Positions 23,070-47,231 of a stretch of 64,000 nucleotides of DNA are shown one piece after another; within the stretch, counting starts at the first letter, position 1; the number at the start of each line of letters is the position of its first letter. The notes below the pieces were generated by a model. The model searched no databases. It worked only from the letters and a program-made list of their open reading frames with translations, and was not told the DNA's origin. Origin of the DNA: Guillardia theta CCMP2712 (taxonomy: Eukaryota > Protista > Cryptophyta); the NCBI RefSeq assembly GCF_000315625.1, contig NW_005434590.1:275950-339949 (forward strand). Reading direction: 5' to 3'. Position numbers and translations under genes: made by a program.

Positions 23070-23084
23070 AAAAAATGATATAAA
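23070..23084 (+). promoter_or_regulatory. PLV promoter motif AAAAAATGATATAAA (also 28562-28576, 28884-28898, 29209-29223 on +; 47008-47022 on -)
   Basis: Five exact 15-mers, each about 23-60 nt upstream of an ATG on the same strand. Confidence 0.8.
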
Positions 23085-23995
23085 GGATTGGCATATATAA
23101 CCATCAAACCAAAAAGAATAAATATCTAAGCCTATATCAAATAGATGGCACGCGAACGAAAAGCTCCTGAGTTGTTCAAACCAACCAACTTCAAGGCTAC
23201 GGCCAAAAAGGCTCCGGCACGGAAGGCTCCAATCCAGCCTACAAATGTCGTTCGACCAGTTCGACCTATTACTGTTCAACGAGCATCGCCAGCCGATGTC
23301 CCAGTCTTGGCTGCCATCCCTATCGACGAGCCAGTTCGACCATCCAGGAAGCCTGTTGCTAAGGAACCGCCAACCGTGGCTGCTGCTTCATCATACTCTA
23401 AGAAATATAGGCATCCAAAGGACTACAAGGATCTTAAAATGGTCAATGACCAGATCACAAGAGATATGAATCTAGCTGTTCATAATGTTGTATTCAAGAG
23501 ATATAAAGATGATGAACTCGACTTCACAATCTATGACAAGGCTTTGAAACTACAAACATCTCTTAGCCCATTCAATGGCCCAAACTCCTGGACGAGCAAG
23601 GTTTGCGGTCTCGACTACAAACCATCACAATATGACAGCCTACCATATCTTAACAGGCCTACACTTGCCGAGATCAAGGACAATGTCTATGTTGGCGAGA
23701 AATTGAGTGATTCCAAGACCGCATCTAATCTCAACACTATCATTAAGACAACGACTGCCCAAGTTGACCCCAATGATCTAACAACCGTCTTGAAGCACCA
23801 CAGACAGATCATCTTGGAGATGCTCCTTTATGCTCAGGAAAACAAGAGGTCACCAAGCACATACTGGGACTATATAAGGGCCTTGACAAGGCTTGCGAGG
23901 ATCTGCCTCGGTGATGATAACGAGCTTTATAAGAAGCTGGCTAAGCTCGGAGATGACTTTGACAAGGCTGTCATCAAGAACATTGAGACAAAGAA

Positions 23996-24922
23996 TGTTG
24001 AAGTTCCCAGTAACCTTCTCTCCACAGACGGTGACACAGTCACAGTAGCAGTGACACTCGAAGTAGACAGTGATAGCACCGACTGCAAGTTTCTGTAGCA
24101 GTGGTAATAGATATCACGAATGGCCGCGCAGGAATGATATCAGGATACAGAGAACAAACGGAGGTGATAAGAGATTGGTATAGATGGTCAAGCTTGTTTA
24201 CTTCAAGCAATCCAGTCTCACAGAGACCATACACCTCGTTCTCCTTTCCCTGTCCTGCCAATGCGTGCGGCGCTTCTTCCTCTTCCTCGGTCCCTAAAAT
24301 AGGGGCTGCCCGGTCCTAGGAACTACCACTACCGGTACTCTACGCTTCTTATCTGCGATATGATTCTTCGACCGGTCCGAGGCCTGGTTCCGTACCTTGA
24401 GGGTCCCCTGAGAAAGAGTCATAGGCTTGACATGACGAGGTTTTCGATTCTCATCCAACGCTCTCTGTGAAGTTGATGTAGCTGCTCCCTTGACCTTGAC
24501 AGGTCCTGTGTCTCCGTAGGAGCATGCTTGGAGGTGGTCTCGTGCATTCCTTGTATGTCCTCCGCTAAGATGATCATGATAGTACTGTCTTCTTTGATCA
24601 GACCCCTTGTTCTCCCATGTCCATGACTTCAGGGGTGATACTTCCAATCTCCCCTTGAGCGTAGCCGTATTCTGCCACCGTGACGGTGTCATCTGCTGTC
24701 CTGTCGTGGACTGATATAAGCTGACTCGCTTATCTCCTGCTGCCATCCACGAGTCCTAAGTTCTTGCTGTCTTCTTCATGATTCTCCTACGTCGTCCTTA
24801 TTGTAGCTGTTGCTGTCCTCTCCAGGGATGCATTCCGAGGCTCTAAGCATCTGTGCACTTGAGCCACGTCGATTACTTGGCATTGTCTGAGGTGAAGCTT
24901 CCTCCTATCAGGTGCTTCAACA
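23996..24922 (-). repeat. 3' LTR of the Copia-derived element
   Basis: No differences seen from 26601-27527; the spurious ORF translations are identical. Confidence 0.95.
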
Positions 24923-26600
24923 CCCTCCCTTGGCTCTTGTGTGCCGATGCCAGCATTGTTACTTTGCCGCGCCTCCATTGACGGTGTCAGGCTTGTCAAA
25001 TTTGACTATGCCTTTCAAATGACCTGCTGCGGTTGACTCTTCGCGCGTCGTCGCCGCAGTATTCCCTCCCTTGCCTAGAGTAGGCGGGAGCTGTTGCTTG
25101 ACAGCAAGGTGGGCTCATGCTTGGTCTCTGGTCGTCTGCCTTGAAGCTGTATGGTTGCTCATCAGACTTGATATTCCTCTTTCCATAAGCGATCAGCCTC
25201 TTGACTTGACTTTCGCAGTAGGGCTGTGCATGGTACTGAAAGGTTCTCCTCAGCGCCCATCAGCACTGATGTGCCTGGCGACTTGGGACCTCCTTCATTT
25301 CTGCAGCATCATTTCATAACTTCGATCGAAGGTATGTCTTCATCGTCTGCTTCTTCGTCTTGCGAAGGCTTGGCGCTTCAAGCTGCCTTTCATTTCTTCA
25401 ACTCTGCTGTAGAGTTGGTTCGTCACAGTGTCATCACGTCGCCATCACAATATAGTGGCTTGTAACGAGGCTTTGGGACGTCTCCCTTCCTCGGTCTTCA
25501 CAACCTTCAAGCTTTCATCTGCCGTGCTCTAGGCTTGCCGCTTCAATCATCGCGGTGCTTGACCAGTGGAATCATGAGGTAACCCGGTCCTCTCCTCACT
25601 GTTGGCCACGTACAGGCTTTGAGGTTGGATTGAAAACAGCTCTTGTCACTTTTGACATTCAGAGCAACTTTGATCAGGACTGATCCCTCCATCATCGAGA
25701 TTTTCTCGCTGTCATGTCACCCCTCAGCTTCTTTGCCACACTCATCATCATGGTGGGAGAGCTATCTGGTGGCCTCGTCGTCATCTTGTGCGACTCCTGG
25801 CTCTGCTTGGCCCGGGGATCCCTGTGACTCGTCCATGTCACTTGACATAGGGATGATGCGAGGCTCGATGCTGATGTCATCATCAGATGTTCTCAGAGGT
25901 TCAGCCTGTCATGAAGTTCAGTATTCAGGTATGATAGTGAAAAGATATGATATTCCCTGATTTTGATTGTTCATTTAGTGAACCCTCCCTGACTGTCTCT
26001 GGTGTCGAACAGATGACCTCAGGCTGAAGTGGGTCCCCTGTGACTTCGCATCATCCATCTCCCTCCCTGACGAGGTGCAGGGAGCTTGGCTAGCTTGACA
26101 AGGTCTTGCATGAAGCAGCGGCGTAATGATGGTCAAACGGAGACCTGAGACATGTCGTTGCCGAACAAGAACGATGCTAGCTGACGAATTTTGGAGACTG
26201 GGCAGATCTTGGTGAGAATGTCCGCAGGGTTGTATGTAGTAGAAATCTTCACAGCGATGATTTCGTTTTCATCCACACTCGTTCGAGTGTACGGTGAAAA
26301 ACGGATTGAGCGTACCCCACATTTCTTCCTCCGTCTTAAAAACATTGTTGCCCGAATTTTCCTTAAGCTTAGTCAGGTCGATACTTGTTTTTGAGAAAGC
26401 TTCATGAATTTCCATTGCCATTTTGATATCAGAACCCATGTTTGACTCCAGGCTCAGCTGTTACTACCGTTGTCACTCCACAGATACTCTCCAACTGATG
26501 TCACTCCGAATGTGAGAGTAAGAGTCCACTGGTTGCCGTGATACAAGGTTTCTCGAGAAATAGAATATCTAGGCACTGATATTCTAAAAATTTTAGAATA

Positions 26601-27527
26601 TGTTGAAGTTCCCAGTAACCTTCTCTCCACAGACGGTGACACAGTCACAGTAGCAGTGACACTCGAAGTAGACAGTGATAGCACCGACTGCAAGTTTCTG
26701 TAGCAGTGGTAATAGATATCACGAATGGCCGCGCAGGAATGATATCAGGATACAGAGAACAAACGGAGGTGATAAGAGATTGGTATAGATGGTCAAGCTT
26801 GTTTACTTCAAGCAATCCAGTCTCACAGAGACCATACACCTCGTTCTCCTTTCCCTGTCCTGCCAATGCGTGCGGCGCTTCTTCCTCTTCCTCGGTCCCT
26901 AAAATAGGGGCTGCCCGGTCCTAGGAACTACCACTACCGGTACTCTACGCTTCTTATCTGCGATATGATTCTTCGACCGGTCCGAGGCCTGGTTCCGTAC
27001 CTTGAGGGTCCCCTGAGAAAGAGTCATAGGCTTGACATGACGAGGTTTTCGATTCTCATCCAACGCTCTCTGTGAAGTTGATGTAGCTGCTCCCTTGACC
27101 TTGACAGGTCCTGTGTCTCCGTAGGAGCATGCTTGGAGGTGGTCTCGTGCATTCCTTGTATGTCCTCCGCTAAGATGATCATGATAGTACTGTCTTCTTT
27201 GATCAGACCCCTTGTTCTCCCATGTCCATGACTTCAGGGGTGATACTTCCAATCTCCCCTTGAGCGTAGCCGTATTCTGCCACCGTGACGGTGTCATCTG
27301 CTGTCCTGTCGTGGACTGATATAAGCTGACTCGCTTATCTCCTGCTGCCATCCACGAGTCCTAAGTTCTTGCTGTCTTCTTCATGATTCTCCTACGTCGT
27401 CCTTATTGTAGCTGTTGCTGTCCTCTCCAGGGATGCATTCCGAGGCTCTAAGCATCTGTGCACTTGAGCCACGTCGATTACTTGGCATTGTCTGAGGTGA
27501 AGCTTCCTCCTATCAGGTGCTTCAACA
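26601..27527 (-). repeat. 5' LTR of the Copia-derived element
   Basis: Direct repeat of 23996-24922. Confidence 0.95.
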
Positions 27528-28608
27528 GAATCAACTCAACATAGACGAAGAGAGAAACTTCTTACCGTATTCATACCTGTTGAATATGATCGATGATATG
27601 GAGCAAAAATACCTTGAGGCAAAAACTAGATACGGTCCACAAGGCTATCATACATACAAGCTACATATGAACACTTTGATCTTAATGTCATATCTGTATA
27701 CGCCACCCCTGCGTTTGGAGCTATCTAATGCCCGCTTCACTAAGACCCTAAGAAATTTAGAACCAGGCAAAAACTACATATACATTCCGCAAAATGGCAA
27801 ACTGGTCAAGTATGTCCTGAATGAGATCAAGAAGAAACACAAACCAATCGAATATGATGTTGGATATCCTATGAATGATGATCCTTTGGCAAAGAGGCTT
27901 ACCGAGTTCATCAAGATGTCCCTTCGTGAGTATCCAAGGGAATACTTCATAACCCTTTATACTGACAAAAATAAGCCAGCTAAAAAAGCAATGACAACAT
28001 ATCTCTCAAGTATGTTCGCTGACCATTCCTTGAACGTGAATATGTTCCGCTCTTCCTACGTGAGTTGGTTGTACTCGAACAATGTTAGCACGAATATATT
28101 GGAAGAAGTGGCATTGAAGATGCGAACAAGCATCTTGACGTTTATGAAGAATTATAAGAAGCTGAATTCTGAACAGATTAGGGTCAAGAGGGAAAGAGAT
28201 GATGATAACAGACCTATTACAATCAATGAGGCGGATGATTCACCAGCGGCTCGGGGGCCTGTCGCAAATCCTATTGCTGCCATTCCACAACCACAACCAA
28301 GACAACCCCATAAGGAGTACAAAGACCCTATCGTCTTAAGACGCGCCAGGGTGAACCGTTACATTGAGAAGACAGGCGGTAGAGAGGCCTTCAATGAGCG
28401 ACAGAAAAAGTACTATAAAGAGAACAGCAAAACTCTATACATCAAGAAACTGTTGAGGATGTACAACACCACCAAGGAGGCAATAGATCCTATCCAACAT
28501 ACCATAAAGAAGTATAAGCTCTACAAGGAAGGGAATGAATGGAAATCTCTGGAGCTTGGGTAAAAAATGATATAAAACAGATATGATAAATATTATATTG
28601 ATAGAGTG

Positions 28609-28875
28609 ATGTTCGACTTGACTTTCTATGATAAAGTCCTTAAATGGTCCGATGAGTTGTCTATAAAACCAACACATAGCAGCGTATTATCTCGTCATCA
28701 AATGTGGTGTCTTAAAAAACGAGGGGATTGTGGTGGAAAAGATCACAGAGATATGGTCAATGATAGATTGTTTGGTCGGTACGTTAAGAGTTGGATGATT
28801 TACTTTGATATGTCATTAGACAAGATACATAATCCAAAAATGCCTTTGAAAGTGATTGGAATTGATAAGATATAA
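28609..28875 (+). CDS. PLV small hypothetical protein
   Basis: ORF downstream of promoter motif 28562. Confidence 0.6.
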   Translation: MFDLTFYDKVLKWSDELSIKPTHSSVLSRHQMWCLKKRGDCGGKDHRDMVNDRLFGRYVKSWMIYFDMSLDKIHNPKMPLKVIGIDKI

Positions 28876-28926
28876 AAAATGAAAAAAAATGATATAAAGT
28901 ATTTAGCAATAATATTATATGATCAT

Positions 28927-29142
28927 ATGAATAAAGAAGAAAAAAAAATGAGCGCATCATTAGAATGGTATTATAAAAAGAGAGAGAATGATCCTGAATA
29001 TGTTCAGAAAGAACGTGAACGTAAGAAATTAGATAATCATAGAAGATATCATTCATCTGAAGAGGAACGACAAAAACAAATTAAAAGATCTCTTGATAGA
29101 TACTATAGAATTAAGGCCCAAAAACTGGCCATCGTTCAATAA
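28927..29142 (+). CDS. PLV small basic helical protein
   Basis: ATG 28 nt after promoter motif 28884; Lys/Arg/Glu/Tyr-rich. Confidence 0.6.
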   Translation: MNKEEKKMSASLEWYYKKRENDPEYVQKERERKKLDNHRRYHSSEEERQKQIKRSLDRYYRIKAQKLAIVQ

Positions 29143-29263
29143 TTCATACAGTTTTTTTGAAAGCATGCTATATTTTACTATTTGTTCTCATTTTTTGTGT
29201 TTTGCCATAAAAAATGATATAAAGATTTCAGCCATAAAATTATCTAACCTAAGAATAAAGGCA

Positions 29264-31588
29264 ATGAACGGTTCAAGCGGTTTGAACAATTACCACTATC
29301 TTTTGAAGAAAGGCTTTGCTTTGACAGCTGTCCACCCCCGCAAGTATGAGGGCGATCGGTTTGTCAAGGGAAAGATCGACGGAGTTGATAAGCCTTATAT
29401 TGATGCTGGTTGGACTAAACAAGAAGTTAATGAGGGGAATGCTTCGGTAGTCTACAACATTATCAATGACAAACCATTCTATGCTGTCCGAACTGGTGAG
29501 ATATCAAACATTATCGGCGTTGACATCGATAGTGACAAGGCTGAAAAAGATGGTATCCCTCGCTCTTTGGAGTTTGAGGAGTGGTGTAAGGCTTCTGGTA
29601 CATATACCATCAAGTCCCCACACGGATATCATTTCTATTTCAGATATGATAAAGATATTAGTAAGAGCGGATCGATACTCGATCATATTGACATTCAATC
29701 AAATGACAAGTGCCTCTTTGCTCCAAATGTCAAACGGGTTGATGGTGTGTATGAAGTCATAAATGAAGCACCTGTAAAGGCAATGCCTGATAAAGTCAAG
29801 AGCTTTATTCTTAAGCATAAACAAACCAGAGATTGTGGGATGGCTGCCAAGCAAGAGAAGGCACCCGAAGCACCCGTCAAAGGTCCTAAAAGTTCAGATG
29901 GGGATGCTGAGGATAGTGAAATAGATGTTGATGATGTTAAAAAGTTGCTCAACCTCATCTCTCCTGATTGCGATTACAATCGTTGGATCAGGGTCCTCGC
30001 GGCAGTCAACAACACTCTCGGTTCTAATGATAAGGCCTATGATATCACCGATGAATGGTCCTCAAAATCTATCAAATATGACCCAAGATCATTTGGTCGT
30101 ATTTGGAACTCGGTAAGGGGCTATGAAGAGATTACAATTGGCACCTTACATCACTATGCTAAGGAAGAACAACCTGAACAATACAAGGAATTATTTGCGC
30201 ATAAAAAAACGAGCATACCAAGAGTTGATATCAGCAAATTGAGGAAATATGAGGATATCAAGGAAGCTTTTGAAAAAGATACGTTTATGGTTTGTATCCC
30301 TCCCGTATATTTTCATAAAAATCGCTATGGTGATAAATACACAGTTGTGAAAGAGGATGGCATCAAACAGGCATATAGGCATCTCAGGTATATCAAGAAT
30401 GTCGGAACAGATAATAAGGGTAATATCAAGACAAAAGAAGCAAGCTTCATCACTGACTGGGTTTCCGACCCTGATAAACGCGTTTATGAATCAGTGAAGT
30501 TTGATCCAAGCAGGAAAATAGATTCTGATATATTCAATACTTTCACTGGATTTGAGGCCGAAAAACATCCCGAAATTGATGAGACGCTTATGATGGAATT
30601 GGTACAACCATACATTGACCACTTTGATATGCTCTTTGGCAGTGATGCTAGAATATTCGTTATGAAATGGATGGCGAACATCATCCAAAATCCAACTCAA
30701 AAATCTGGTGTTTGTTTGCTTTTGAAGAGTGAAGGAGAAGGTTCCGGAAAGACCACACCATTTGAGTATTTCGGAAGAAAGGTGATTGGAAACAATCATT
30801 ATAAGAACACCAGTGACCCAGAAAACGACCTCTTTGGTAGATTTGCTACTGCGATTCACAACTCATTGCTTGTCCAACTTGAAGAGATTAAAGGTGTCGT
30901 GTTTCATAAAAACGCTAGTACGTTTAGAGATATGATAACCAAGAATACAGCACGATGGGAGGTTAAAAATGTCACTGTCAAAGACGATGATGAGAACTTT
31001 GCGAGCTTTATATTAACCACCAACAATGAGAACCCTATAACTGTCACTCCAACTGATAGGCGCTTCTGTGTACTAAATGTAAATGAAGCTATGATTGGGA
31101 ATGTTGAATACTTCGAAAGATTTATTGAAGTGGTAGAACATCCGTCTTGGGGCAGGGCGTTGTTTCAATATCTTAGAGATTTGGAAGGCGTGCCAAAGAA
31201 CATCGCCCAATTCCAAAACCAAAGATATAAAAGCGAGGCTTATGATGATATGCGAAAGCAAAACATCCCTAACTGGGCCAGGTTCTTGATCAATAAGGTG
31301 ATGCTCAAAACTTCTCTCATCAAGAACAACTCTGTTGAAATCAAACCAACAGAAGATGTAAAAGCTAGTAAATTATATGATGAATACGTTCAATACTGCG
31401 AGAAGACACGTGTTGAAGCTGCGACAATGAAACAGACTGGATTTGCTATAAAGATTAAGTCTGTTGAGGGGATCATAAAACAGAGAAGTAGATTATGTTG
31501 TAATTATACGATTGATTGGGAAGCTGTTGAAAAATGGCTTGTCAAAAAGAATTACTGGGATGATGATAATATCACAGTAGAGATATAA
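29264..31588 (+). CDS. Primase-polymerase + PriCT-2 + SF3/D5-like helicase fusion
   Basis: GVDIDSD and SPHGYHFYF (Prim-Pol); DYNRWIRV...DEWSSKS.KYD...ITIGTL (PriCT-2); GEGSGKTT, VQLEE, TTNNEN, DRRF (helicase). Start placed at ATG 29264, after the promoter motif. Confidence 0.9.
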   Translation: MNGSSGLNNYHYLLKKGFALTAVHPRKYEGDRFVKGKIDGVDKPYIDAGWTKQEVNEGNASVVYNIINDKPFYAVRTGEISNIIGVDIDSDKAEKDGIPRSLEFEEWCKASGTYTIKSPHGYHFYFRYDKDISKSGSILDHIDIQSNDKCLFAPNVKRVDGVYEVINEAPVKAMPDKVKSFILKHKQTRDCGMAAKQEKAPEAPVKGPKSSDGDAEDSEIDVDDVKKLLNLISPDCDYNRWIRVLAAVNNTLGSNDKAYDITDEWSSKSIKYDPRSFGRIWNSVRGYEEITIGTLHHYAKEEQPEQYKELFAHKKTSIPRVDISKLRKYEDIKEAFEKDTFMVCIPPVYFHKNRYGDKYTVVKEDGIKQAYRHLRYIKNVGTDNKGNIKTKEASFITDWVSDPDKRVYESVKFDPSRKIDSDIFNTFTGFEAEKHPEIDETLMMELVQPYIDHFDMLFGSDARIFVMKWMANIIQNPTQKSGVCLLLKSEGEGSGKTTPFEYFGRKVIGNNHYKNTSDPENDLFGRFATAIHNSLLVQLEEIKGVVFHKNASTFRDMITKNTARWEVKNVTVKDDDENFASFILTTNNENPITVTPTDRRFCVLNVNEAMIGNVEYFERFIEVVEHPSWGRALFQYLRDLEGVPKNIAQFQNQRYKSEAYDDMRKQNIPNWARFLINKVMLKTSLIKNNSVEIKPTEDVKASKLYDEYVQYCEKTRVEAATMKQTGFAIKIKSVEGIIKQRSRLCCNYTIDWEAVEKWLVKKNYWDDDNITVEI

Positions 31589-31611: not shown

Positions 31612-31827
31612 CAACCCTACACAAAATCACAAACCCTACACAAACCCTACACACTCTATTTTCCTTACCATAACAATGTCATTATATTATTTTATTTAGT
31701 ATAAATAGACACTAGTGTGTAGGGTGTGTAGGGTGTGTAGGGTTTGAAATGAGTTGAGGGAAATAAATAAAATAAAAAAAAGGGTAACTCATTTCAAACC
31801 CTACACCCTCCACACCCTACACACTCA
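31612..31827. repeat. Internal copy of the ACCCTACAC iteron module (putative replication origin)
   Basis: Same forward-reverse-forward repeat layout and spacers as ~21500-21730. Confidence 0.75.
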
Positions 31828-31930: not shown

Positions 31931-32254
31931 ATGAGCAAGTATACCTATGCCTCTCTCTCTCCATCTCAAGCAAAGCACAAGAAGTACAAGTTAGTACTCT
32001 ATGACAAAGATCAGAAGAGGATCAAGACTGTTCAGTTCGGTGATAGTCGATATCAGGACTTCACACAGACCCACAATGATCAACTTAGGAAGTACTACAT
32101 AGCGAGACACGATAACGGTCGTGAGGATTGGTCGGTCCCTGATACCCCCGCATCCTGCGCAAGGTGGATCTTATGGGATCAGTACACAAAAGAGAAAGGA
32201 TTTGAGAACTACCTCAGGCGATTCCACTTGAAGCGCCTAGATCTGTCTGACTAG
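31931..32254 (+). CDS. Tlr6F-like (DUF5754-like) protein
   Basis: KHKKY...TVQFG..RYQDFT..H....R..Y..RH...ARWILW pattern typical of this PLV/virophage/giant-virus family. Confidence 0.8.
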   Translation: MSKYTYASLSPSQAKHKKYKLVLYDKDQKRIKTVQFGDSRYQDFTQTHNDQLRKYYIARHDNGREDWSVPDTPASCARWILWDQYTKEKGFENYLRRFHLKRLDLSD

Positions 32255-32780
32255 GATGGTTAGAATAGCCTCCGAGTATATAAGGAATATATCTATGTTT
32301 AGATATGACAGACCCCATATTACTCTTGATGAATTCTGGGATCCCATTCACAGACTCCATAAGAGTGTCATAAGACTGGATGTAATTATTCAGTTTGTCG
32401 GAACTAATATCCCTATTAGTTAAGGTCTGTTCAATGCTATGCTCTAACTTACTAAATTTGCTTGCGAGGTCGTAGTACAAACTCGCTTTTTCACTTATCT
32501 TCAATTGGCTATTTACACCTATTAATACAGCCGTGACCGTATTGAAAACGATATTTATAATTCTCATTATTTTATCGTCCTGAAAACTGCCATTTAAGAC
32601 AGCAAGTGATGATGATAAGATGATCAATGGGATCATAACTATCTGCTTCCACAGATTATACCATCCCGCGGTTCTATTACATAGGATGCTCATGATCCTT
32701 GCCATCTCTTTGTACTTCTGCCATAGCTCGTTCTCATTGCTTTCAGTTCGTTCCAGTCTGACATTGATGTCAGGCATCAT
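32214..32780 (-). CDS. Two-transmembrane (SLATT-like) protein
   Basis: Two hydrophobic helices (IVMIPLIILSSSLAVL; IINIVFNTVTAVLIGV) followed by a helical cytoplasmic tail. Confidence 0.6.
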   Translation of the reverse strand: MMPDINVRLERTESNENELWQKYKEMARIMSILCNRTAGWYNLWKQIVMIPLIILSSSLAVLNGSFQDDKIMRIINIVFNTVTAVLIGVNSQLKISEKASLYYDLASKFSKLEHSIEQTLTNRDISSDKLNNYIQSYDTLMESVNGIPEFIKSNMGSVISKHRYIPYILGGYSNHPSQTDLGASSGIA

Positions 32781-32981
32781 TGGTCCTTATATATACATTA
32801 GAAGAATATTGGAAACCTTGTAGTGTCCCATCAGCGGCCACATACTGCCTTCCCTCCATAATCAATCTAATGCTATGATTCAACGCATCCAGATGCTGTC
32901 GATTGTGTACTGAAGATATTATTTTTTCGTTGGCCATCCATCACTATAAGAATAGTCTAAAAAAAAGATAAGACGTGATGA

Positions 32982-34166: not shown

Positions 34167-34195
34167 TGAAAGCTACTTTTACAATAGTCAAATAT

Positions 34196-37273: not shown

Positions 37274-37307
37274 TGTGACTGGTATATTTATAAAAAGAAA
37301 AATATTA

Positions 37308-37841
37308 TTATTTCAACCAATTAGGCTGGTTCGATTTGTTAGAGATAAGCTGATCAGCACTCCAAGGTCCCGTATCTTTTTGTAACTCGATCTCCTCGTC
37401 GTAAACCACGAGGGTAAAGAAGAGCTGTTCAATATCCACCTTGGTAATGTTCATAAGATTGATGCGAAACTGATTGGTTCCTGATAAGAAGTTCTCCTTA
37501 CACTTCCAGTTCTTTGATATCTTTGGGTTATAGTTTTGATATGAGACAGTCGCGGCATCTTTGCCAACATTGAATAGCACAGCACCATAGATGCCATTGC
37601 CCTTGCTATCAAATGTAAGGGATGTATCAACATCATTTGTATACAGATAGACGATATCTGTTGTGTCAACCTTCTTGATATATAAGGAATCCAATACAAT
37701 CCTAGCATGTTCAGACAGGATTTGACCGGTTGGATTCTTGATCTGCCAAGTTAGAGTGGTAGCCGAATCGCTGGTCTCTTGTACATCATTGATATCGAAG
37801 CTGAGGTGTATCAATTTCTTAGGCCTGAAAAGTTTAGGCAT
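37308..37841 (-). CDS. Putative small beta-rich structural protein (minor capsid-like), paralog of the 1025-aa protein termini
   Basis: Shared LF.PKK, LS..ARIVL, GA.L, YQN....KN.K, VYDEE and DT..W motifs. Confidence 0.75.
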   Translation of the reverse strand: MPKLFRPKKLIHLSFDINDVQETSDSATTLTWQIKNPTGQILSEHARIVLDSLYIKKVDTTDIVYLYTNDVDTSLTFDSKGNGIYGAVLFNVGKDAATVSYQNYNPKISKNWKCKENFLSGTNQFRINLMNITKVDIEQLFFTLVVYDEEIELQKDTGPWSADQLISNKSNQPNWLK

Positions 37842-37860
37842 TTATATAACTGGCATATTT

Positions 37861-38169
37861 TTATTCGATCACCTCGATGCCCTGAACTATGCCACTGATT
37901 TGATCAGCCTTGTCCTTCATCTCTTCGATCTCTTTCTTCAATTCTGGATCCTTCTCATAGTCTGGTTCGGTCTTATCTGGATGGTATAGATAGTCAAGAC
38001 AGGCTGTATAGAGGATTGATGGGGGGATGTCTGGATACATCTGGCTGATATTGTTCACCATTTCCATTGCCTCCTTATGCTTCCTGTCTCTCTCCTCCTC
38101 CTCCTCGATCTCTTGGAGCTGCTGTGAGACGTCGATGAATTCACTTCCGGTCATCTTTATTATAAGCAA
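37861..38169 (-). CDS. PLV hypothetical protein
   Basis: Tightly packed ORF downstream of the ATPase. Confidence 0.65.
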   Translation of the reverse strand: MLIIKMTGSEFIDVSQQLQEIEEEEERDRKHKEAMEMVNNISQMYPDIPPSILYTACLDYLYHPDKTEPDYEKDPELKKEIEEMKDKADQISGIVQGIEVIE

Positions 38170-38172
38170 CCA

Positions 38173-39084
38173 TTAAAATTCTAGGATTCTATCCCAACAT
38201 CTCAAGAAGTGGCCACCATCTGGGCACCTAGGGTGGTTGTTTACGGTAAGCCAGTTATACTTCTCTTCAATACAGTGTTCATATAATTGTTCAAACACCT
38301 CTGGTTTTACTAGGCCGCTGATCTCGTCATATATACCTTCCATAATCACCTTCTTGTTCATACATCGATATATCATATACACATCGATGTTGTTTCGTAC
38401 GATCTTTGGGATGGATTTGAGATTTTGAGTTGTGAATATCATATTGATGCCGTAATGCCTATGCTTGATTAGGAAGTTGCTAAGCTTGTTGTTCTTCTTT
38501 GTGTTGAAGGCCTTGTTATCTGAGATGAGATCATCGAAGACAAAGAACACCACAGGTGGCTTCTTGTATTTAAGATTGCCAAAGGCGACATCAGGCTCTT
38601 GGAAATCGTACTTATAGAGCAATTCAAGTTCATCCATTGTCAATCTGTCTTCACCGACCTTCATCCATCTGCTATAAGCCTTCTTATACTGATCATATTC
38701 CTCTATGTCCTTCTTTATCTGCTGGACCTCATCAATCTTCTCTTGGAGTTTATCCTCAGAATACTCATCAACAACATCATTCTCAAGGTCTAGCTGCTTG
38801 ACTGTCTCTAATATGGTATTGGATTTGCTCTGGACGGTAGGAGAGAACCACACCACCTTGATATCGATCTTCTTGCTATCCTCTGGGTCATAGAACGGGT
38901 ACTTTTCATAATGGTGGAATAATTTCGCTATCCCGAATGTTTTACCGCAATTCTTAGAGGCTACCGCAAGTATTGAACAGTACACAGGAGGCAGGAAAGG
39001 ATTATCGGAAGTTGGAAGCTTATTCTTCTTGTAAGGTTTAGGCTTGTTATCTAGCAATGGTATCTGGTGCTCTGTTATATCCAT
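38173..39084 (-). CDS. A32-like (FtsK-HerA) genome packaging ATPase
   Basis: Walker A ASKNCGKT, Walker B FFVFDD, RHYGINMIFTTQ, IPKIVRNN. Confidence 0.93.
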   Translation of the reverse strand: MDITEHQIPLLDNKPKPYKKNKLPTSDNPFLPPVYCSILAVASKNCGKTFGIAKLFHHYEKYPFYDPEDSKKIDIKVVWFSPTVQSKSNTILETVKQLDLENDVVDEYSEDKLQEKIDEVQQIKKDIEEYDQYKKAYSRWMKVGEDRLTMDELELLYKYDFQEPDVAFGNLKYKKPPVVFFVFDDLISDNKAFNTKKNNKLSNFLIKHRHYGINMIFTTQNLKSIPKIVRNNIDVYMIYRCMNKKVIMEGIYDEISGLVKPEVFEQLYEHCIEEKYNWLTVNNHPRCPDGGHFLRCWDRILEF

Positions 39085-39163
39085 TTACTAATTGATAAGA
39101 AATTAGTAATAGCTAGGCCTTAGCAGATCACTAACATAATTGAGGCGTTCCTGGTTGACCTTC

Positions 39164-39643
39164 TCACGCAATCGTTCGTTGATCGCGTTCAAGGCTTGTT
39201 AATCTTCCAAGATTTTTATCATCAGAACCATGGTGGGGATAGCGTGGCTCTGAGCGTTTGACTCTCCTAACCACAATCTCCTCATCGCTCTCTTCTTCGT
39301 CATCGCTCTCCTCGATAATGATCTTCTTCTTCTTCTTAACAATCTTAGATACCTTGGGCGGATCATTTTGCTCCTGTGCTGGTTCGACTGGTTTAGCAAC
39401 GAGCTTTTCCACAGTCTTATCAAACTCATCACCTTCCTTCTTCAAGGCCTCCATTTTGATTAATTTGTTAAACTTGCTCTTTTGATTCAACTTAGCTTTT
39501 TGCTTTCTTGCTTCCTCTGCTTTGATGCGCATTAATTTGAGACGTTCCAAAAGTTCTGGCGAGCACTCCTTTTTCTGCTTGGTGACCACCTGTGCTTGTT
39601 GGTCAACATCTGTCTCTTCAATGACCTTCGGTTTTCTTCCCAT
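39164..39643 (-). CDS. Lys/Glu-rich PLV protein
   Basis: ATG 39643, MGRKPK...LERLKLMRIKAEEARK...KKKKKIIIEESDDEEE. Confidence 0.7.
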   Translation of the reverse strand: MGRKPKVIEETDVDQQAQVVTKQKKECSPELLERLKLMRIKAEEARKQKAKLNQKSKFNKLIKMEALKKEGDEFDKTVEKLVAKPVEPAQEQNDPPKVSKIVKKKKKIIIEESDDEEESDEEIVVRRVKRSEPRYPHHGSDDKNLGRLTSLERDQRTIA

Positions 39644-39681
39644 TTGTAAGAAAGTAAAGAAAAAAAAATTACTTAAATTGC

Positions 39682-40026
39682 TCAAGGGCCATGAACTGGC
39701 CGAGCCATCTTTGGAACATCCTTAATATTGTGCTTAGTGTACATCACAGTAACATCACGATTACCCACCATCTCTTGAAGCATTGGTTGGAAATCCTCGT
39801 AGTTAACATCTGGCCTCGATTGCTTGGAGTTGTAGATGTCACGCTTAAAAGCTGTGTCACGCTGCTGATAATAGTTAGAACTGGTAGGATAGGGCATTTT
39901 ATTGATATCATCGTTTGGATGGATCCGCGGGTTCACAGTGTGATGATCGACTTTATTCACTTCGATATCTAGGAAGCTTAAATGGTTCTTGTAACCATAG
40001 CTGAACGTGCTTGGTTGGAGATACAT
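39682..40026 (-). CDS. PLV hypothetical protein (114 aa)
   Basis: ATG ORF directly after the major capsid gene. Confidence 0.65.
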   Translation of the reverse strand: MYLQPSTFSYGYKNHLSFLDIEVNKVDHHTVNPRIHPNDDINKMPYPTSSNYYQQRDTAFKRDIYNSKQSRPDVNYEDFQPMLQEMVGNRDVTVMYTKHNIKDVPKMARPVHGP

Positions 40027-40062
40027 TCTTCTTTTAATCTAATGCGAGATTATTTAGTCTAG

Positions 40063-41560
40063 TTAATTGATACTAATTTGGTTTCCTGAACCGATAGTCA
40101 AATGTCTTGTTTCACAGCAGATGATAAGAGGTAACCATACCTGGTCTGAGGAACTCTTACCAGATGTAACGCTTCCTCGCGTGGACCACTCGATAGAAAC
40201 AGGGAGCTGCCTTGTGTCGAGGCCTGAAATAACCATAGTGCCTCCCGCATCGCCAACGTGCGATAAACTAAGGGTGTCGCAGAAGAAGTACTTCACATAA
40301 TCGCTAATACTCTTATTCCCAGCATAAAAACCAAGATCAGCAGACTGATGAAGATTGAATGCTTCAACTGTGTTCTGAATACAGTTCATCAGATTGGATG
40401 GAACCTGTGGTAGCTTCTCAGATCCGATGGTCCATTGGCTGGTGACGAGCTCTTCACCATTCCTTTGGAAGTATACGGTTTGGTTGAAGGTGTTTTCTGA
40501 TGGTCCTAGGATAAGGGCCTCTCCAAGGGTTTTGTCAGTTGGTAGCACAAATCCACTCACTTTAGAGAGATCATCGCGGTCAGCCCTGATGAATGTCCCG
40601 ATCATATAATCGAGACTATCGCTTGCGATTGTGAACCGTGTCGTTTGCGACTTATACGGGCTTGCCTGGCCAAAGAATGTGGTATAGTTTGGAAAATAAA
40701 GCTCGTAATTTGTCCCTTTCATAAGCTGATTTTTAAGGCCCTCATAATACCATCCAGGCATATTGATTTTGGTCACGTTGGCTTTGATGTCGCTTAGCTT
40801 ATAGCTTGGGGCTGGAAATATATTCTCGCTTGCTGTTGTAGAAGTAGTTCCTTTAGAATTTCCCAAAACAGCAGCACTTGCAAATGTGATGCTGATCTGA
40901 ACTTGACCAATCATTGAAGTATCTATGACGTTAATGTTTCCTTGCTGTAGGACACCTAAGAAATTTTTGATGAAATAAGTTGATCTGTCCTTAACAAGAT
41001 TGCTATCAAGAGCTGTTGTGCTAACAAATCTTGCAAATCGTGCGTATGTACTAATGGTGCCATCATCATTGACAACGCTCTTGCTCGAGGGATCCACATT
41101 CAGACCACAGCATTGAGCGCGGCCCATAGCATCTTGGTTTAGTGCCACAATGTCAAACAAGATGTTCTGGATCATGGCATAATCGGTGATCACGGTGCTG
41201 AACCACAACGCCATTGAATTTTATTTGTATCTCTTGGATAAGACTGTAAGTGTTCCTCGGGAATCGGAGAGATGTCACAGATTGTGACCCAGATGCTCCT
41301 GATAGAACACCGTTTGTTGTCTCTCCAGTAAATTCCAAGCTAAAGGTCGACAGATCAAGCAATGAAGAGTAAGGCAACGTGATCTGGATCTTCTGGTTAG
41401 GTCCAACCGTGGAGGGCGTGGTAGGCGTGATTTGTATCTTGGTTTTCGACATGTTCGCTAACGAGCGCACCCGCCATTGTAAGTTAGTTGGAACGTACAT
41501 TCCAGCCGTTTCAGGAGAGGGCCCAGACATTGCGGCTTGCGACATTGCGTTTTGAAACAT
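40063..41560 (-). pseudogene. Major capsid protein (double jelly-roll, PgVV-like PLV type), frameshifted near 41190
   Basis: Two overlapping ORFs. N-part has ITLP..SLLDL.TF and FPRN..SLIQ.I.I..NG; C-part ends SGLDTR...HLTIG.G.QI. Removing 4 nt gives a 497-aa protein. Confidence 0.82.
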
Positions 41561-41607
41561 CTTTGCTTTTAAAAGACAGACAGAAAAAAAAATAAGATTT
41601 CAAATTC

Positions 41608-42417
41608 TTAATTTAAGCCGTATTTTTTCCTCAACATCATCTCATAATGTTCAAGGCTGCTTGGATGAGAAATAGTATTTGCATGATAAGCCCTCGATAG
41701 TATCCCCCATAATCCATACTTAGTGATGAGGTACTGCGATAGCTTATGGATAGGATTCGAGAATGAATGTTCAAGCTGTATCTTGTATTTTTCAAACAGC
41801 TCGATGAATCGAATCTGCCTGTTATAAGACATATTCGAGAACCTCACAATCTGGTCTCTTGTCCAATCGCTCAAGGCCACAGAGGGTATCTCTACTTGCT
41901 GGCCTGGAGATCTTGAACCGGCTGCCGGTGAGTTAACTTCATCTTGTGACATCGGTCCGCTGTCTTCAAATTCCGACTCGTTAACTCCTCCTGATCCGAT
42001 GCCTAAGGCTTGGTTCATAATAGAATCGGTCTGATTAAACGATTCACGCTCTGGTTTGATGACATCTGGGGCTAAATCTTGAACATTGTTGTCATCATTC
42101 GGTGCTAATTGTTGACTGACCACATCAGGATTGTATTGCGTTGGGATTTCAGTGCTCCCCTGTGGTTGGGTTGCCGCAGCACCATATCGAGATGGAATCC
42201 CTAACCCCTCGTTATTGTACATTGGCAGGCTAGGGGCCTTGTTCATATATGGTATAATGTTTTGTATGTGTGCCTGACTGGGTGGCTCAGGATCATCAGT
42301 GTTGGATTGGAGCTCTGGAATATATTTATTCTTCGATTGCTGATTGTTCTCATTTTTAATATTCACCTCAACATTTACACCTGTCTTCCTATTTCTTACT
42401 TTGGTCTTCACAGTCAT
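41608..42417 (-). CDS. PLV hypothetical protein (269 aa)
   Basis: Intact ATG ORF upstream of the major capsid gene. Confidence 0.7.
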   Translation of the reverse strand: MTVKTKVRNRKTGVNVEVNIKNENNQQSKNKYIPELQSNTDDPEPPSQAHIQNIIPYMNKAPSLPMYNNEGLGIPSRYGAAATQPQGSTEIPTQYNPDVVSQQLAPNDDNNVQDLAPDVIKPERESFNQTDSIMNQALGIGSGGVNESEFEDSGPMSQDEVNSPAAGSRSPGQQVEIPSVALSDWTRDQIVRFSNMSYNRQIRFIELFEKYKIQLEHSFSNPIHKLSQYLITKYGLWGILSRAYHANTISHPSSLEHYEMMLRKKYGLN

Positions 42418-42441
42418 TTATCTTATTGATTGAAATTATTT

Positions 42442-45400
42442 TTAACTACAATGATATGAACATCCTATGAAAACAGCTATATACTCAACTCCTTGGTAAG
42501 TCTCATATCGATGCTTAAAATTCTTGTAATACCAATCTGAATCTTCATCAATAAAATCAACTGAACAGCTTGTCTTGGCTACTGTATAATTATGAAGTAA
42601 ATCATCAGATTGCTTCATACTGTATCCCTTGATTGGACTTGAACATAGATAATCGCCATTCTCTATGGCTTCAACGCCATAATTACAGCACCATATAGCC
42701 CCCTCGCCGACCGCATTGATCATAACTCTATTGTTGTCAAGCTTAGGATATGAATAATGCCACCTTCCAGTCTTATAGATTCTTTTATCTCCTCCCTCCA
42801 CGTTGGAGATCACACCATACACAGCTTTGTCACATTGAATGTCTGTTAATTTGATTATTGGCAGCGAGCTATCAATGCGAATGTTAGAGCTAAAATCATA
42901 ATCTGTTCTATTCAAGTCTTGATAAAATCCAGTGGTAGAAACCAATAGACCCTGATAGTAGTCAAGGTTAGATGTTATCTCATCTAATAGATTTGAGGTT
43001 ACAGCAATACAACGATGAGAGCCCGTGAAGTCTAGATCATCATTGGCATTGTCATTATGTCTCAACCATTGCTCACCTGTATCATCTAAAGCACCATATT
43101 GAAACATCAAATCATTTGTTGCGCTGGTTCCTCCAAATGATACAGAATTCAATAATTTATAAATAACCCATTCTCCACTATCAACAGCACCAGAACCACC
43201 CTTGGGTATATAGATACGGTCCAAGCTTATTCCAGTACATTTGACATAATTATCTGTTATTCTTCCCCATTCTCCAAGATTTAAATAACCTTGATCATTC
43301 ATTGAAATACCTTTGTAAATAGCGCATCCACTAGATCGTCCATAAAGTCTTGTCCAAGTGCTGTCACTCTGTAAAATTTCAGTGCCTGAAATATGATAGC
43401 TCCCATCTGTTTCAATGTTGCCAGTAGATGAAATTGATGAAGGACTAAAAGCACCACAACTCAATGTGCCTGAACAAGTAACATTTCCTATCAAAAATGA
43501 TGTTAGGCTAACATACAAAGTGCCTGTGACCTCCAAATCATCGGCATAATCTGTGGCGACTAGATTCCCATTGACGGTCAAATCTCCCGAGCATGTAACA
43601 TTACCGGTAAAGGATGATGTGCCTGTTACACTTAGATTATTCCCACAGCTTACGGCTCCGGTTAAGGTTGATGTGCCTGATATGCTTAGATTGTTTGCGC
43701 AATTGATATTAGCAGCAAAATCAACATCAACGGTTATAGTTCTAAAATCAAAATTGGTTCCATGTGGATAAATCTTAATAACCTCTCTTTCTTTTACAAG
43801 AGCACCATATCCAGACATACCAGTTGCTGAAAATCCTTGATATGGATTTGCTTTATCACCTCCAAGTATTGATATAGAAGCATAAGTTGCTCCCTTTGTG
43901 ATTGTTTCAGTTGCTGAACCACTTGCCCAAGTTGATGAAGTGTGAACATGAAAAGCTAAGTTTGTTTTCCTATTTGTTCTTTCATCTGATGGTGTGCCTA
44001 AACTGTTTTGAATAACCAAGGATTTGCTTTCAATCCACGTATTATTGTTTGCTTCATCAAGAGCAACATCAATATTATTTTTGTACTTCCATCTATTATT
44101 GACATCGTCATAAATGCCCCATTCATTATTGCCATCATGCGTAAATACAACCCTGCCATCAATGCTGTATCCTTCCCAATTATTAGTTCCTGAACCATTG
44201 ATTTGAACACTGCCATATTGACCTGAGACAGTTGATAAATAGTTTGTATCGTTGATGTATAGATCCCCAACTCCAATGTTCAACCCATCAATATATTCCT
44301 TGGTGTAATAGTTCTCGTTAGAAGTGTCAATCTCGGTCTTGGTGTAATAATTGGGTAAAACAACATCATCAAGAAACAATGTCTTACCTTTGAAGATTGT
44401 TTTGTAGTCTCTCAAAACATTGATCATCTCAATAATACCACCAGAGGTTTCGCTTTCCTGTAGTGTAAAACCAAACACATGTTCATCTAATTCTGTTTGT
44501 GTCAGTTCATTCCCTAGTGTTAAGATCTCCTCGCCTTGGAATGATATAAGCCTGCTATCTAATTCAGTAGTAGGGTTTCCTTCAACATCGATCTTATATG
44601 TGCTATCATATACATATGCTTCGCCAGCAGCTAGATTGAGTTGTGATCCATCTGTTGTGTTGCGTGAATATATCTTGATTGCTCTGTCTTGATGAAGTCT
44701 ATGTATTATCTCTGTCTCTAACAGATTTATAACAGTGCCAATAGCAAGTCGTAAAACATTGATCCAGTTCAATAAAAACAAGCCATCGGCCTTGCTAGTA
44801 TTCAAGGATGAAGCTATCAACCCCCCAACAAAACCAGCACCAGCGGAAGCAAAGTCGCCCAGCCCAGAGAAGATATCGAATGCGCTATTTGCTGTATCAA
44901 CTATATCTCCAAGATTGGCTTCATCATCTGGGTTTGATATGCTGTTAACACTATCTACTAGTCCATTGATGCTATCAATGATGTCCTGAACAGTAATATA
45001 TGAGCCATCTTGCTTTCTCAAACTGATTGTATAGGTAGCCGCTTGATCATCATAGAGCAATTGGATCAGATCGGAGTCATTGTTGAACAGTGCTGTCAAT
45101 GTTTGATTGTTGGCATTCTCAGCTAGGTTTATGATAGATTGTAAGGTAGATATTGCGTTGGAGTTGTTTTCAACATCACTTGATAAATCTGTTATTGTTG
45201 ATTGTAAGGTGTCAATGCTCGTGGTGTTGGCATCAACACTTGTTTGTAGGGTGTCAATGCTCGTAGTGTTGGCTTCAATGCTCGTTGCGTTGGCTTGAAT
45301 GTTCGCTGCGTTGGCTTCAATGCTCGTTGCGTTGGCTTCAATGCTCGTTGCGTTGGCTTCAATGCTCGTTGCGTTGGCTTGGATATCATCTGTGTTTGTA

Positions 45401-45516
45401 CTAACAACACCCTCCAATGCTTTATGTGCCTCATCTAATTTGATGATAGCTGTTTTAAGAGAACTGATCTGATATTGAACTGTATCAACAGACAAGCCAC
45501 TGATCCAGGTGCTCAT
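42442..45516 (-). CDS. Fibre-like protein (1024 aa) with heptad coiled coil and C-terminal chaperone/autocleavage-like domain
   Basis: ANATSIE 21-nt repeats (~45205-45380), G.L.V.G beta repeats, C-terminal FTGSHRC...GEGAIW...NGDYL.SS...GC.YHC typical of large-DNA-virus fibre proteins. Confidence 0.75.
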   Translation of the reverse strand: MSTWISGLSVDTVQYQISSLKTAIIKLDEAHKALEGVVSTNTDDIQANATSIEANATSIEANATSIEANAANIQANATSIEANTTSIDTLQTSVDANTTSIDTLQSTITDLSSDVENNSNAISTLQSIINLAENANNQTLTALFNNDSDLIQLLYDDQAATYTISLRKQDGSYITVQDIIDSINGLVDSVNSISNPDDEANLGDIVDTANSAFDIFSGLGDFASAGAGFVGGLIASSLNTSKADGLFLLNWINVLRLAIGTVINLLETEIIHRLHQDRAIKIYSRNTTDGSQLNLAAGEAYVYDSTYKIDVEGNPTTELDSRLISFQGEEILTLGNELTQTELDEHVFGFTLQESETSGGIIEMINVLRDYKTIFKGKTLFLDDVVLPNYYTKTEIDTSNENYYTKEYIDGLNIGVGDLYINDTNYLSTVSGQYGSVQINGSGTNNWEGYSIDGRVVFTHDGNNEWGIYDDVNNRWKYKNNIDVALDEANNNTWIESKSLVIQNSLGTPSDERTNRKTNLAFHVHTSSTWASGSATETITKGATYASISILGGDKANPYQGFSATGMSGYGALVKEREVIKIYPHGTNFDFRTITVDVDFAANINCANNLSISGTSTLTGAVSCGNNLSVTGTSSFTGNVTCSGDLTVNGNLVATDYADDLEVTGTLYVSLTSFLIGNVTCSGTLSCGAFSPSSISSTGNIETDGSYHISGTEILQSDSTWTRLYGRSSGCAIYKGISMNDQGYLNLGEWGRITDNYVKCTGISLDRIYIPKGGSGAVDSGEWVIYKLLNSVSFGGTSATNDLMFQYGALDDTGEQWLRHNDNANDDLDFTGSHRCIAVTSNLLDEITSNLDYYQGLLVSTTGFYQDLNRTDYDFSSNIRIDSSLPIIKLTDIQCDKAVYGVISNVEGGDKRIYKTGRWHYSYPKLDNNRVMINAVGEGAIWCCNYGVEAIENGDYLCSSPIKGYSMKQSDDLLHNYTVAKTSCSVDFIDEDSDWYYKNFKHRYETYQGVEYIAVFIGCSYHCS

Positions 45517-45536
45517 TTAATTAGAATGAAGATTAA

Positions 45537-45770
45537 TTAAAAATGGAGATAGACAGTTTCCTTTCTTATGCCAACACGGCACCGTTTTTTCCTATATGTA
45601 TGGGTGAAGCTCGATCGCTCATAATAACTGATCTGTTCCTTAGTCAGAAGCTGGTTTTGAATGAAGAATTGTAAGATATATTGATTTCTAAAGATGACCT
45701 CAATAAGATCCTTGATGAATGTATTGTATTCTTTTTGTTTTATGCGATAGATATGTTGAGCCTCATTCAT
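45537..45770 (-). CDS. PLV small hypothetical protein
   Basis: 77-aa ATG ORF at the head of the structural block. Confidence 0.5.
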   Translation of the reverse strand: MNEAQHIYRIKQKEYNTFIKDLIEVIFRNQYILQFFIQNQLLTKEQISYYERSSFTHTYRKKRCRVGIRKETVYLHF

Positions 45771-45826
45771 TTATACAATATCAATAAAATAATCTGAGTG
45801 GGGGTTCCGCCCCCCAACGGCGGTGG

Positions 45827-46398
45827 GAAGATAGAGAGAATGAATAAATACTCTATTGAATACCTGATGTGATGTAAGAGAGATTTATGAAAAATTATTA
45901 AGGAATCTTTGTGATAGTTGAGAGGATAGGGGTATAGTTGGCGGAGACGCGGAGACGTTACCCCTAAATATTTCATATGGCGAGTAGGGGTTGGATCTAG
46001 GGGTATAGAAAAGTTTGGGCTAACGTCTCCGCGTCTCCGCCAACATCCATGATCATCATCTAGTACATAGAAGACTAGAAGTGGAGAGTGTGGAGGGTTT
46101 GGAGTGTGGAGGGTATGATTTTGTTTACCCCTTTGAAATTATTTTTATTTTGATGAACTCATCATAAACCCTCCACACCCTCCACACCCTCCACAATACA
46201 TATATTTAGACTAGATTATAGATAGAAAGTAAGATGATAATGGTAAGGGAGAGGCTGTGTGGAGGGTTTGTGGAGGGTTTGTGATTGTGTGGAGGGTTGC
46301 TATGTGATGACTGACAAAGGATCCCTTGCTCTGTGTGCTGCGCACACCGCCCAGCTGCGCAGGGCTTACCTCCGACCCTCATGAGAGAGCAAAAAGCC
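45827..46398 (-). repeat. Right long inverted repeat
   Basis: Imperfect reverse complement of 21401-21979. Confidence 0.92.
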
Positions 46399-46400
46399 TT

Positions 46401-47231
46401 ATGAGAATGGTAAGGAGAATGAACAATGTTTTTGATAAGAAAAGAGAACCCAACTAAGTTGGGTGCTGCTGAACAGCCTGTTAGGATGTGCTTGCTTTCA
46501 AAGCAGCGCGGGTCACCATTAACATTTTATGTCTTCTTGTATCTTGATGTCCTAAAAAGTGCCCTCTGCTTATAGACATTCCACATTCGCACGGTATTTT
46601 TTCTTTCATCATATTGGCATAACGGCTGACGCGCTCAGCAATCTTCTCCTTGTTCTCATCTCTATATTGCTTCTCAGTTCTTCCAGCGACAAGCTTATTG
46701 AGATTGCCAATCTCACGGATTAATTCTCCCTCTCTCTTGCGTAATTGTTGAACATTATCACAGGGATGTTCTTCGTAGAGTTCAATGTACCAATCATCCC
46801 AGCTGGTCTCACGGATCCTTTGATAGAGTTTCATATTGTAGCCTTTTTCATTAGGATCGAAGCAGTGCTGTTTATGACCTGCCCATCTCTTGCTAAGTGG
46901 TTGAATAGTAGAACCAACATATATGAGTGATGTATCAGATCGACATCTGATAGTATAGATAACCCCTTTTGAGTAATCAGGCATTCGTTTTTATACTTCC
47001 TGATACGTTTATATCATTTTTTCGACGAGAGGCACTGGTAGCCTCCAACGATGGTCAGTGACGCTCCATCTCCCCCTGAGCAGGATCCCTCTCCATCTCC
47101 CCTAATTGTTCAGATTGGTCACGAAGAAGTACCCTGGGTACTTGGTCAGCATCCCACGTGACCAGTTCTGACATTTTTCCCCTATATTTGGCATAGGTGG
47201 TCATATACGTCATATACACTTTACCGCATGC
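46401..47231 (+). repeat. Right outer direct-repeat segment X' (carries the GIY-YIG gene)
   Basis: Shares start and ~205-bp end with 20825-21400. Confidence 0.88.
46481..46984 (-). CDS. GIY-YIG endonuclease with C-terminal zinc-finger-like motif
   Basis: GVIYTI...IYVGST...KRWAGH...RE...LN; CECG...H....RH. Confidence 0.9.
   Translation of the reverse strand: MPDYSKGVIYTIRCRSDTSLIYVGSTIQPLSKRWAGHKQHCFDPNEKGYNMKLYQRIRETSWDDWYIELYEEHPCDNVQQLRKREGELIREIGNLNKLVAGRTEKQYRDENKEKIAERVSRYANMMKEKIPCECGMSISRGHFLGHQDTRRHKMLMVTRAALKASTS

Follow-up and report, generated by a model that had tools for sequence, protein, structure and literature searches.

We analyzed a 64-kb stretch of the Guillardia theta CCMP2712 genome (contig NW_005434590.1; 64,000 nucleotides, hereafter the window) that contains an integrated polinton-like virus (PLV), and focused on an exact 15-mer, AAAAAATGATATAAA, which recurs upstream of the non-structural genes of this element. 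An earlier note on this DNA had proposed that the 15-mer is an early promoter, possibly one recognized by a helper-virus RNA polymerase. The element itself has already been published, since Yutin 2015 (PMC4642659) reports a PLV of G. theta whose recombinase is disrupted by a Copia-like element, and the fragment of its major capsid protein (MCP) is 100% identical to GUITHDRAFT_144246 of G. theta. It displays the features of PgVV-like PLVs, namely a double-jelly-roll MCP (as judged from the model of a homologue), a packaging ATPase and long inverted repeats (IRs).

The 15-mer and its genomic setting

The 15-mer occurs five times in the window, where the earlier note had placed it, and all copies are oriented toward the downstream gene. 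On the forward strand, the copy at 23070..23084 ends 60 nucleotides (nt) upstream of the ATG (23145) of a divergent tyrosine recombinase (YR) gene (23145..28563, +); the one at 28562..28576 overlaps the recombinase stop codon and lies 32 nt before the ATG (28609) of the open reading frame (ORF) orf88 (28609..28875, +), for which no family was found; the one at 28884..28898 stands 28 nt upstream of orf71 (28927..29142, +; ATG 28927), which encodes a small basic protein; and the one at 29209..29223 precedes by 40 nt the ATG (29264) of a primase-helicase gene (29264..31588, +) with PriCT-2 and DUF5906/S3H matches. The fifth copy, on the reverse strand (47008..47022, -), is located inside an outer segment termed X', 23 nt upstream of the ATG (46984) of a GIY-YIG endonuclease gene (46481..46984, -). 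These distances agree with the 23-60 nt previously claimed for the same genes. A partial copy, announced at about position 22504, was recovered at 22505..22519 (+): it comprises the AAAAAATGAT core without the TATA extension and lies 35 nt upstream of orf156 (22555..23025, +), which encodes an acidic protein with no family found and no lead at 0.9.

No copy is expected by chance in 100 dinucleotide shuffles (0 found), and the expected count is 0.001 when the element is modelled as an order-4 Markov chain and 0.0006 when its intergenic DNA is shuffled. Allowing two mismatches adds a single site, a weaker core at 28874..28888 that overlaps the copy at 28884, and the host-like part of the window contains no copy. 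The motif divides the genes by class: it precedes five of six genes on the non-structural side, compared with none of the 14 genes of the capsid-side block (31931..45770; Fisher p=4e-4), which have no core site within 120 nt upstream. Position weight matrix (PWM) scores are 15.3-17.6 for the five copies and 8.9 for the partial one, versus 2.7 at best upstream of capsid-side genes. This absence, already remarked in the earlier note, persists despite equal AT-richness (AT fraction of the last 40 upstream bases 0.65-0.85 for capsid-side genes versus 0.55-0.85), and within the window the motif is not equally common before structural genes or in host-like DNA.

The YR label follows Yutin 2015 and rests further on homologues from PLV contigs; a single-sequence model of the protein reached a pLDDT of 38, with no PDB or PHROG match. 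A Copia-like long terminal repeat (LTR) element (23996..27527) interrupts the gene, which forms a single frame of about 630 codons without it. Its insertion appears recent because its two 927-bp LTRs (23996-24922 and 26601-27527) are 100% identical; the interior is short and decayed, and GAA flanks the insert on both sides. Phage primase matches of the primase-helicase, at 22-23% identity, are uninformative. Directly 3' of this gene stands a third, internal and palindromic IR copy (31612..31826; 175/212 aligned bases identical), which is likely an origin or a recombinase site. A palindromic repeat block, a candidate replication origin, also follows the primase-helicase stop in the PLV contig L432 (L432:1000-1250).

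The capsid-side block encodes a DUF5754 protein on the forward strand and SLATT, fibre-like, ATPase, MCP and other proteins on the reverse strand. The packaging-type ATPase (38173..39084, -) matches Zot above the cut-off and Pox_A32 below it. The double-jelly-roll MCP gene (40063..41560, -) is split into two overlapping frames (41153-41560 and 40063-41214), and the frameshift at 41153-41214 reflects either a sequencing error or decay. The model of a full-length MCP homologue, P0002 (pLDDT 60), is a double jelly roll that Foldseek matches to capsid proteins (E 1e-14). As a guess, 33315-34166 might encode a minor capsid protein. With its Copia insert in the recombinase and its split capsid frame, this PLV copy is probably defective. 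A candidate late motif, W4CT, occurs 6-26 nt upstream of 8/14 genes in the capsid-side block (mean of 5.0 in shuffles, p=0.07); it was rejected after showing no enrichment in the giant-virus clade discussed below (20/96 versus 19.9 in shuffles). Searches with the MCP or primase-helicase found no close relative in viral or metagenome contigs. Freshwater metagenome contigs are approximately 92-98% alike to the capsid-side block over window 33337-39015, so that this PLV has close relatives outside the culture.

The IRs (left, 21401..21979, +; right, 45827..46398, -; 532/565 aligned bases) form the inner repeats, flanked by related outer segments in direct orientation: X (20825..21400, +), with only 3'-end remnants of GIY-YIG and no motif, and X' (46401..47231, +), which carries the GIY-YIG gene with its promoter and ends at the host junction. 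The GIY-YIG gene is thus outside the IR, as the earlier note stated. The whole unit is inserted in a host 3.3-kb tandem repeat, other copies of which represent the empty site, and the two host junctions share only GC. The tandem unit (47230-64000, 19787-20824 and 9676-10609) forms head-to-head arrays and encodes a 630-aa P-loop protein; an assembly gap of 909 N lies at window 1490-2398. A further word, ATGGTAAGG, is found in each IR (21562 and 46240), in the internal copy (31663) and at the beginning of each outer segment (20831 for X, 46407 for X'), and is a candidate recombinase-binding word. In a host DNA run, X-type DNA is covered at four to eight times the level of the PLV body, and its right end continues into other DNA; it possibly corresponds to solo footprints or to a small recombinase-mobilised element.

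The earlier note also saw in the motif a tie between X' and the PLV. This stands insofar as the GIY-YIG gene shares the transcription signal of the other genes. The tie is only partial, however, because GIY-YIG genes move with their own promoter (in related PLVs, they occupy varied positions with varied neighbours, each with its own motif copy), and because the host has multiple copies of X-type DNA. A stronger tie than the motif comes from the junctions and the empty host site, and we regard it as fairly probable that X' belongs to the PLV unit. The junctions would fit a circle of IR-genes-IR-X' recombining at the X' end, with X as the remnant of an earlier event. Terminal direct repeats have been reported on recombinase-bearing PLVs in Tyrannomonas (PMC12747079).

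The motif in other PLVs

A metagenome scan for the motif followed by a GIY-YIG start yielded 51 loci, many with ATPase, SLATT, DUF5754 or YR homologues. In 41 distinct PLV GIY-YIG promoters, the unsearched flanks have an A before the pattern in 41/41 and an A after it in 38/41; the exact 15-mer is present in 19 of them, and the spacing is 20-42 nt (search window 15-45). Gene classes were counted after dereplication at 90%, leaving out the genes by which the loci had been selected. A core site stands before both YR genes (2/2), all small basic ORFs (3/3) and one of three related primase-helicases, and is missing before ATPase (0/6), SLATT (0/6) and DUF5754 (0/2) genes. The contig L432 repeats the regulon, with three exact 15-mers located upstream of a primase-helicase (47 nt), a small ORF (26 nt) and a DUF5710 gene (36 nt). 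An unbiased scan of GIY-YIG starts gave 29 distinct upstream regions, 12 of which carry a core 23-40 nt upstream. Seven of these 12 cores read TGATTTAA and none is the exact 15-mer; the form of the motif, or dialect, hence varies among PLVs, as expected if it tracks their helpers.

These promoters bear on a first alternative, in which the word is not a promoter at all: it might be bound by the recombinase or helicase that the element encodes, form a Met-Ile-stop micro-ORF, or result from a coding constraint (Lys-Asn-Asp-Ile-Lys). The word does contain ATG ATA TAA, and two of the five copies are in frame and open with the downstream gene. However, an ATG-less form, AAAAATTGATATA, occupies orthologous places before RPB3/11 genes of giant viruses (genomes G018, G012 and G038 versus G014) and is found in GIY-YIG promoters (21 versus 20). 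Moreover, the spacings span all frames, the word has a single orientation, always facing a gene, and it is missing from the IRs and junctions, which carry their own repeated words. We consider a non-promoter role very improbable.

Giant-virus early motifs and the Budvirus clade

The 15-mer shares sequence and positional properties with Nucleocytoviricota early promoters (WWWWWTGW core): an A/T run is followed by an invariant TG, the spacing to the start codon is narrow and one-sided (23-60 nt in the window), and the genes that follow are those of replication and transcription, not capsid genes, with exceptions among the primase-helicases of relatives. Published early motifs include AAAATTGA in Mimivirus, CroV, PgV and pacmanvirus and AAAANTGAAAA in vaccinia (PMC5294985, PMC11788076). 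The comparison with the Mimivirus early promoter made in the earlier note is right for the core, which is shared, but the closer match is not AAAATTGA; it is AAAAA(A/T)TGATATA of the Budvirus clade.

Scanning IMG/VR with the 15-mer returned at least 120 loci, reduced to 115 by excluding five near locus ends. Among the matches listed, an ORF starts 20-34 nt downstream in 26/115 loci, versus 3/113 for the reversed word and 3/115 on the opposite strand (p=4e-6). Clear Pfam matches downstream are XRN1, deoxynucleoside kinase (dNK) and cold-shock protein, weak ones are RPB3/11 and capping enzyme, and most of 30 fragments have none. Budvirus is an Imitervirales IM_12 virus of the cryptophyte Rhodomonas, with 27 neighbours listed in supplements (PMC10960955). 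Such neighbours account for 5/27 of the distinct giant-virus metagenome-assembled genomes (GVMAGs) matched by the 15-mer (L054, L079, L089, L100 and L109), against 0/33 for AAAAATTGATTTAAA and 0/11 for the reversed word (p=0.015, 0.006), again among the matches listed.

The dialect was then quantified in 30 of 45 chosen records, a non-random set in which 18 were picked for carrying the 15-mer. These exclude Budvirus, AaV and TetV-1 themselves, and the nearest Budvirus neighbour counted is G014 (about 67% average amino acid identity). The share of AAAAAWTGA followed by TATA reaches 18.4% in G038, 13.8% in G018 and 12.6% in both G014 and G035, all listed neighbours, and 12.6% and 11.5% in the unlisted G008 and G012, versus 0.7-5.7% in the other 24 records; it thus exceeds 11% in 6/6 genomes of the clade and 0/24 of the others. 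Selection bias is limited because twelve low-share genomes were also picked for carrying the 15-mer. After the core, the TATA:TTTA ratio is 117:28 in the six clade genomes versus 121:268 in the other 24. The six high-share genomes, four of which are listed Budvirus neighbours, form one clade. In a search with RPB3/11 against G018, they display 64-67% identity, followed by 50% and 39%, while the remaining records stand at 32% or less (12) or have no match (10). In the RPB3/11 tree (18 rows; G008 and G035 left out, no locus), G012 is nested among the listed neighbours (94/98).

Within 160 kb of five clade genomes, 14/16 sites of AAAAAWTGATAT lie 15-45 nt before a start, and motif sites precede genes for RPB2, RPB3/11, topoisomerase II, capping enzyme, dNK, helicase and the small subunit of ribonucleotide reductase. 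In the clade-genome sequence examined, the motif is missing before two capsid genes, VLTF3 and one RPB1. A matrix built from 34 Budvirus-clade sites gives the top ranks in the window to the five PLV copies. The comparison of upstream regions that the earlier note had suggested places the motif before the same gene classes in independent PLVs, and before transcription and replication genes in giant viruses. A search for PF04441 (VETF large subunit) was negative in all five clade genomes, and in controls as well. A Budvirus-clade helper appears likely because the core plus TATA is enriched in that clade, before transcription genes, and we place its chances slightly above even.

A helper from elsewhere is a possible but clearly weaker candidate: the early promoter could be read by a virus of another family, be it an AaV-like member of the Schizomimiviridae or one from an unsampled lineage, or by any Imitervirales polymerase. 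The AaV early motif, [AT][AT][AT][TA]AAAAATGAT[ATG][AG][AC]AAA[AT], includes AAAAATGAT and has the octamer AAAAATGA (PMC5917014), and the core is common to several families; genome G037 is rich in AAAAATGATAT (77 in 1.06 Mb), yet has no RPB3/11 match. On the other hand, all five PLV copies have a T where the AaV pattern has A/G, the TATA:TTTA ratios given above separate the clade from the other 24 genomes, and the sole isolate of the matching clade infects a cryptophyte.

Several observations weigh against an early promoter read by a Budvirus-clade polymerase. Single promoters of genomes outside the clade also read TGATATA, with AAAAATTGATATAA preceding RPB3/11 in G047, G048 and G050, so that the dialect signal is statistical. 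The exact 15-mer also stands before ORFs in GVMAGs outside the Budvirus-neighbour list, the 30 records are not random, and the IMG/VR figures rest on the at least 120 matches listed. Among relatives of the PLV, the core is missing before 2/3 related primase-helicases and 3/3 D5-type ones. PLV-like contigs (L464:1-6130 and L483, with GIY-YIG, YR or primase-helicase, and SLATT-like genes) are binned in giant-virus genomes, one of them of the Budvirus clade; in that bin, GVMAG-M-3300009164-67, L464 has TGATTTAAA, not TGATATAAA, although its binning may reflect composition only. Budvirus is also the sole clade member whose host is known, and it failed to lyse four further genera of cryptophytes.

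Finally, the motif contains TATAAA, 29-66 nt before the ATGs, which could be a TATA box for host RNA polymerase II in a PLV autonomous in the nucleus. TsV-type PLVs are autonomous, and cultures in which no giant virus was detected contain transcripts of some cryptophyte PLV capsid genes. By contrast, the invariant A-run-TGA before TATA does not belong to a TATA box, 41/41 relatives have the A that precedes the searched pattern, and other PLVs exchange TATA for TTTA while keeping the core. A single short-read RNA run (same species label, about 6% sampled) gave a depth of at most 0.06 over 23156-23819 and 28468-31787, i.e., near zero over motif-bearing genes, which is a weak argument given the lack of a host-gene control and the unstated strain. 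A host promoter is, in our view, improbable.

Proposed mechanism and comparison with known systems

Position, gene class, conservation among PLVs and the giant-virus signal all support the proposal of the earlier note, and on this sequence evidence the 15-mer is very probably an early promoter of giant-virus type. We assign a probability of about 0.8 to the reading in which it drives the PLV recombinase, primase-helicase, nuclease and small ORFs and a helper giant virus, likely of the Budvirus clade, supplies the RNA polymerase that reads it. In poxviruses, VETF contacts invariant G and A residues of the early element, and in related yeast elements transcription starts at a median of 11 nt after the element (PMC6211774). 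By analogy, a Budvirus-clade virus would supply the polymerase and a virion-packaged early factor that binds the A-run-TG core, with transcription starting approximately 10-15 nt downstream of the motif. The recombinase and primase-helicase would be made in the first phase of infection, followed by excision and replication, while capsid genes would await a late signal. This copy would require a recombinase, and probably a capsid protein, in trans. It is likely that a giant virus could in this way switch the dormant G. theta PLV on.

More tentatively, at a little under even odds, PLV early promoters may carry a clade-specific dialect that names the helper, with this PLV and estuarine PLVs bearing the 15-mer wired to the Budvirus clade. 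Integrated PLVs may be autonomous or may depend on a particular giant virus, a question settled for hardly any of them, and cryptophyte genomes carry hundreds each, with 706 PLVs published for R. lacustris. The dialect singles out the clade of the sole sequenced giant virus of a photosynthetic cryptophyte and would offer a sequence-only way of pairing PLVs with helpers, directly testable in the existing system of Budvirus and Rhodomonas lacustris PLVs. If true, an unisolated Budvirus relative infects Guillardia, much of the Budvirus clade infects cryptophytes, and 15 letters can reveal the helpers of thousands of integrated PLVs.

The principle is not new: sharing of early motifs by PLVs is already known from the Gezel-14T regulon, and a loose screen for it has been made in Antarctic PLVs (19% of the PgVV clade; PMC11502894). 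What appears new is the invariant 15-mer, its conservation across PLVs and the match to the Budvirus-clade dialect. No paper was found that reports this motif, either for the PLVs of G. theta or for the Budvirus clade, in a search that did not cover figures, bioRxiv supplements or the journal version of the Gezel work, and the word "promoter" is not in the main texts, as far as available, of PMC12220804, PMC10960955, PMC12747079 and PMC11296320. The G. theta PLVs of Yutin 2015 share the host, and the recombinase of one is broken by a Copia-like LTR element; the available part of that paper yielded no mention of a promoter or helper.

Among giant viruses, the clade of Budvirus (PMC10960955) resembles the PLV in having AAAAA(A/T)TGATATA(A/T) 20-40 nt before early-type genes; its sites are variable, whereas the PLV fixes one form. 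TetV-1, from the same family as Budvirus, uses ATCCGGA (PMC12126595). AaV (PMC5917014) shares its octamer and AAAAATGAT, but two bases after TGAT, where the AaV motif has A/G, each of the five PLV copies has T. A close counterpart among PLVs is Gezel-14T (PgVV-14T) with its helper PgV-14T, in which the helper's early motif precedes Yrec, TVpol, pgvv05, seg2 and pgvv16 (bioRxiv 10.1101/2022.07.28.501842), i.e., a recombinase, a primase-helicase, an endonuclease and small ORFs as in G. theta. Gezel-14T also has a terminal-repeat copy after its recombinase/primase-helicase module (PMC11296320), like that at 31612-31826. It differs by its AAAATTGA core and mesomimivirus helper, where we find an invariant 15-mer, an integrated cryptophyte PLV and a match to an IM_12 subclade; moreover, helper dependence is shown for Gezel-14T and inferred here. 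A parallel is also found in the EMALE/mavirus-CroV system (PMC10945749), where promoter type predicts which integrated elements CroV wakes; those elements are virophages with a late motif, whereas the G. theta element is a PLV with an early motif restricted to non-structural genes.

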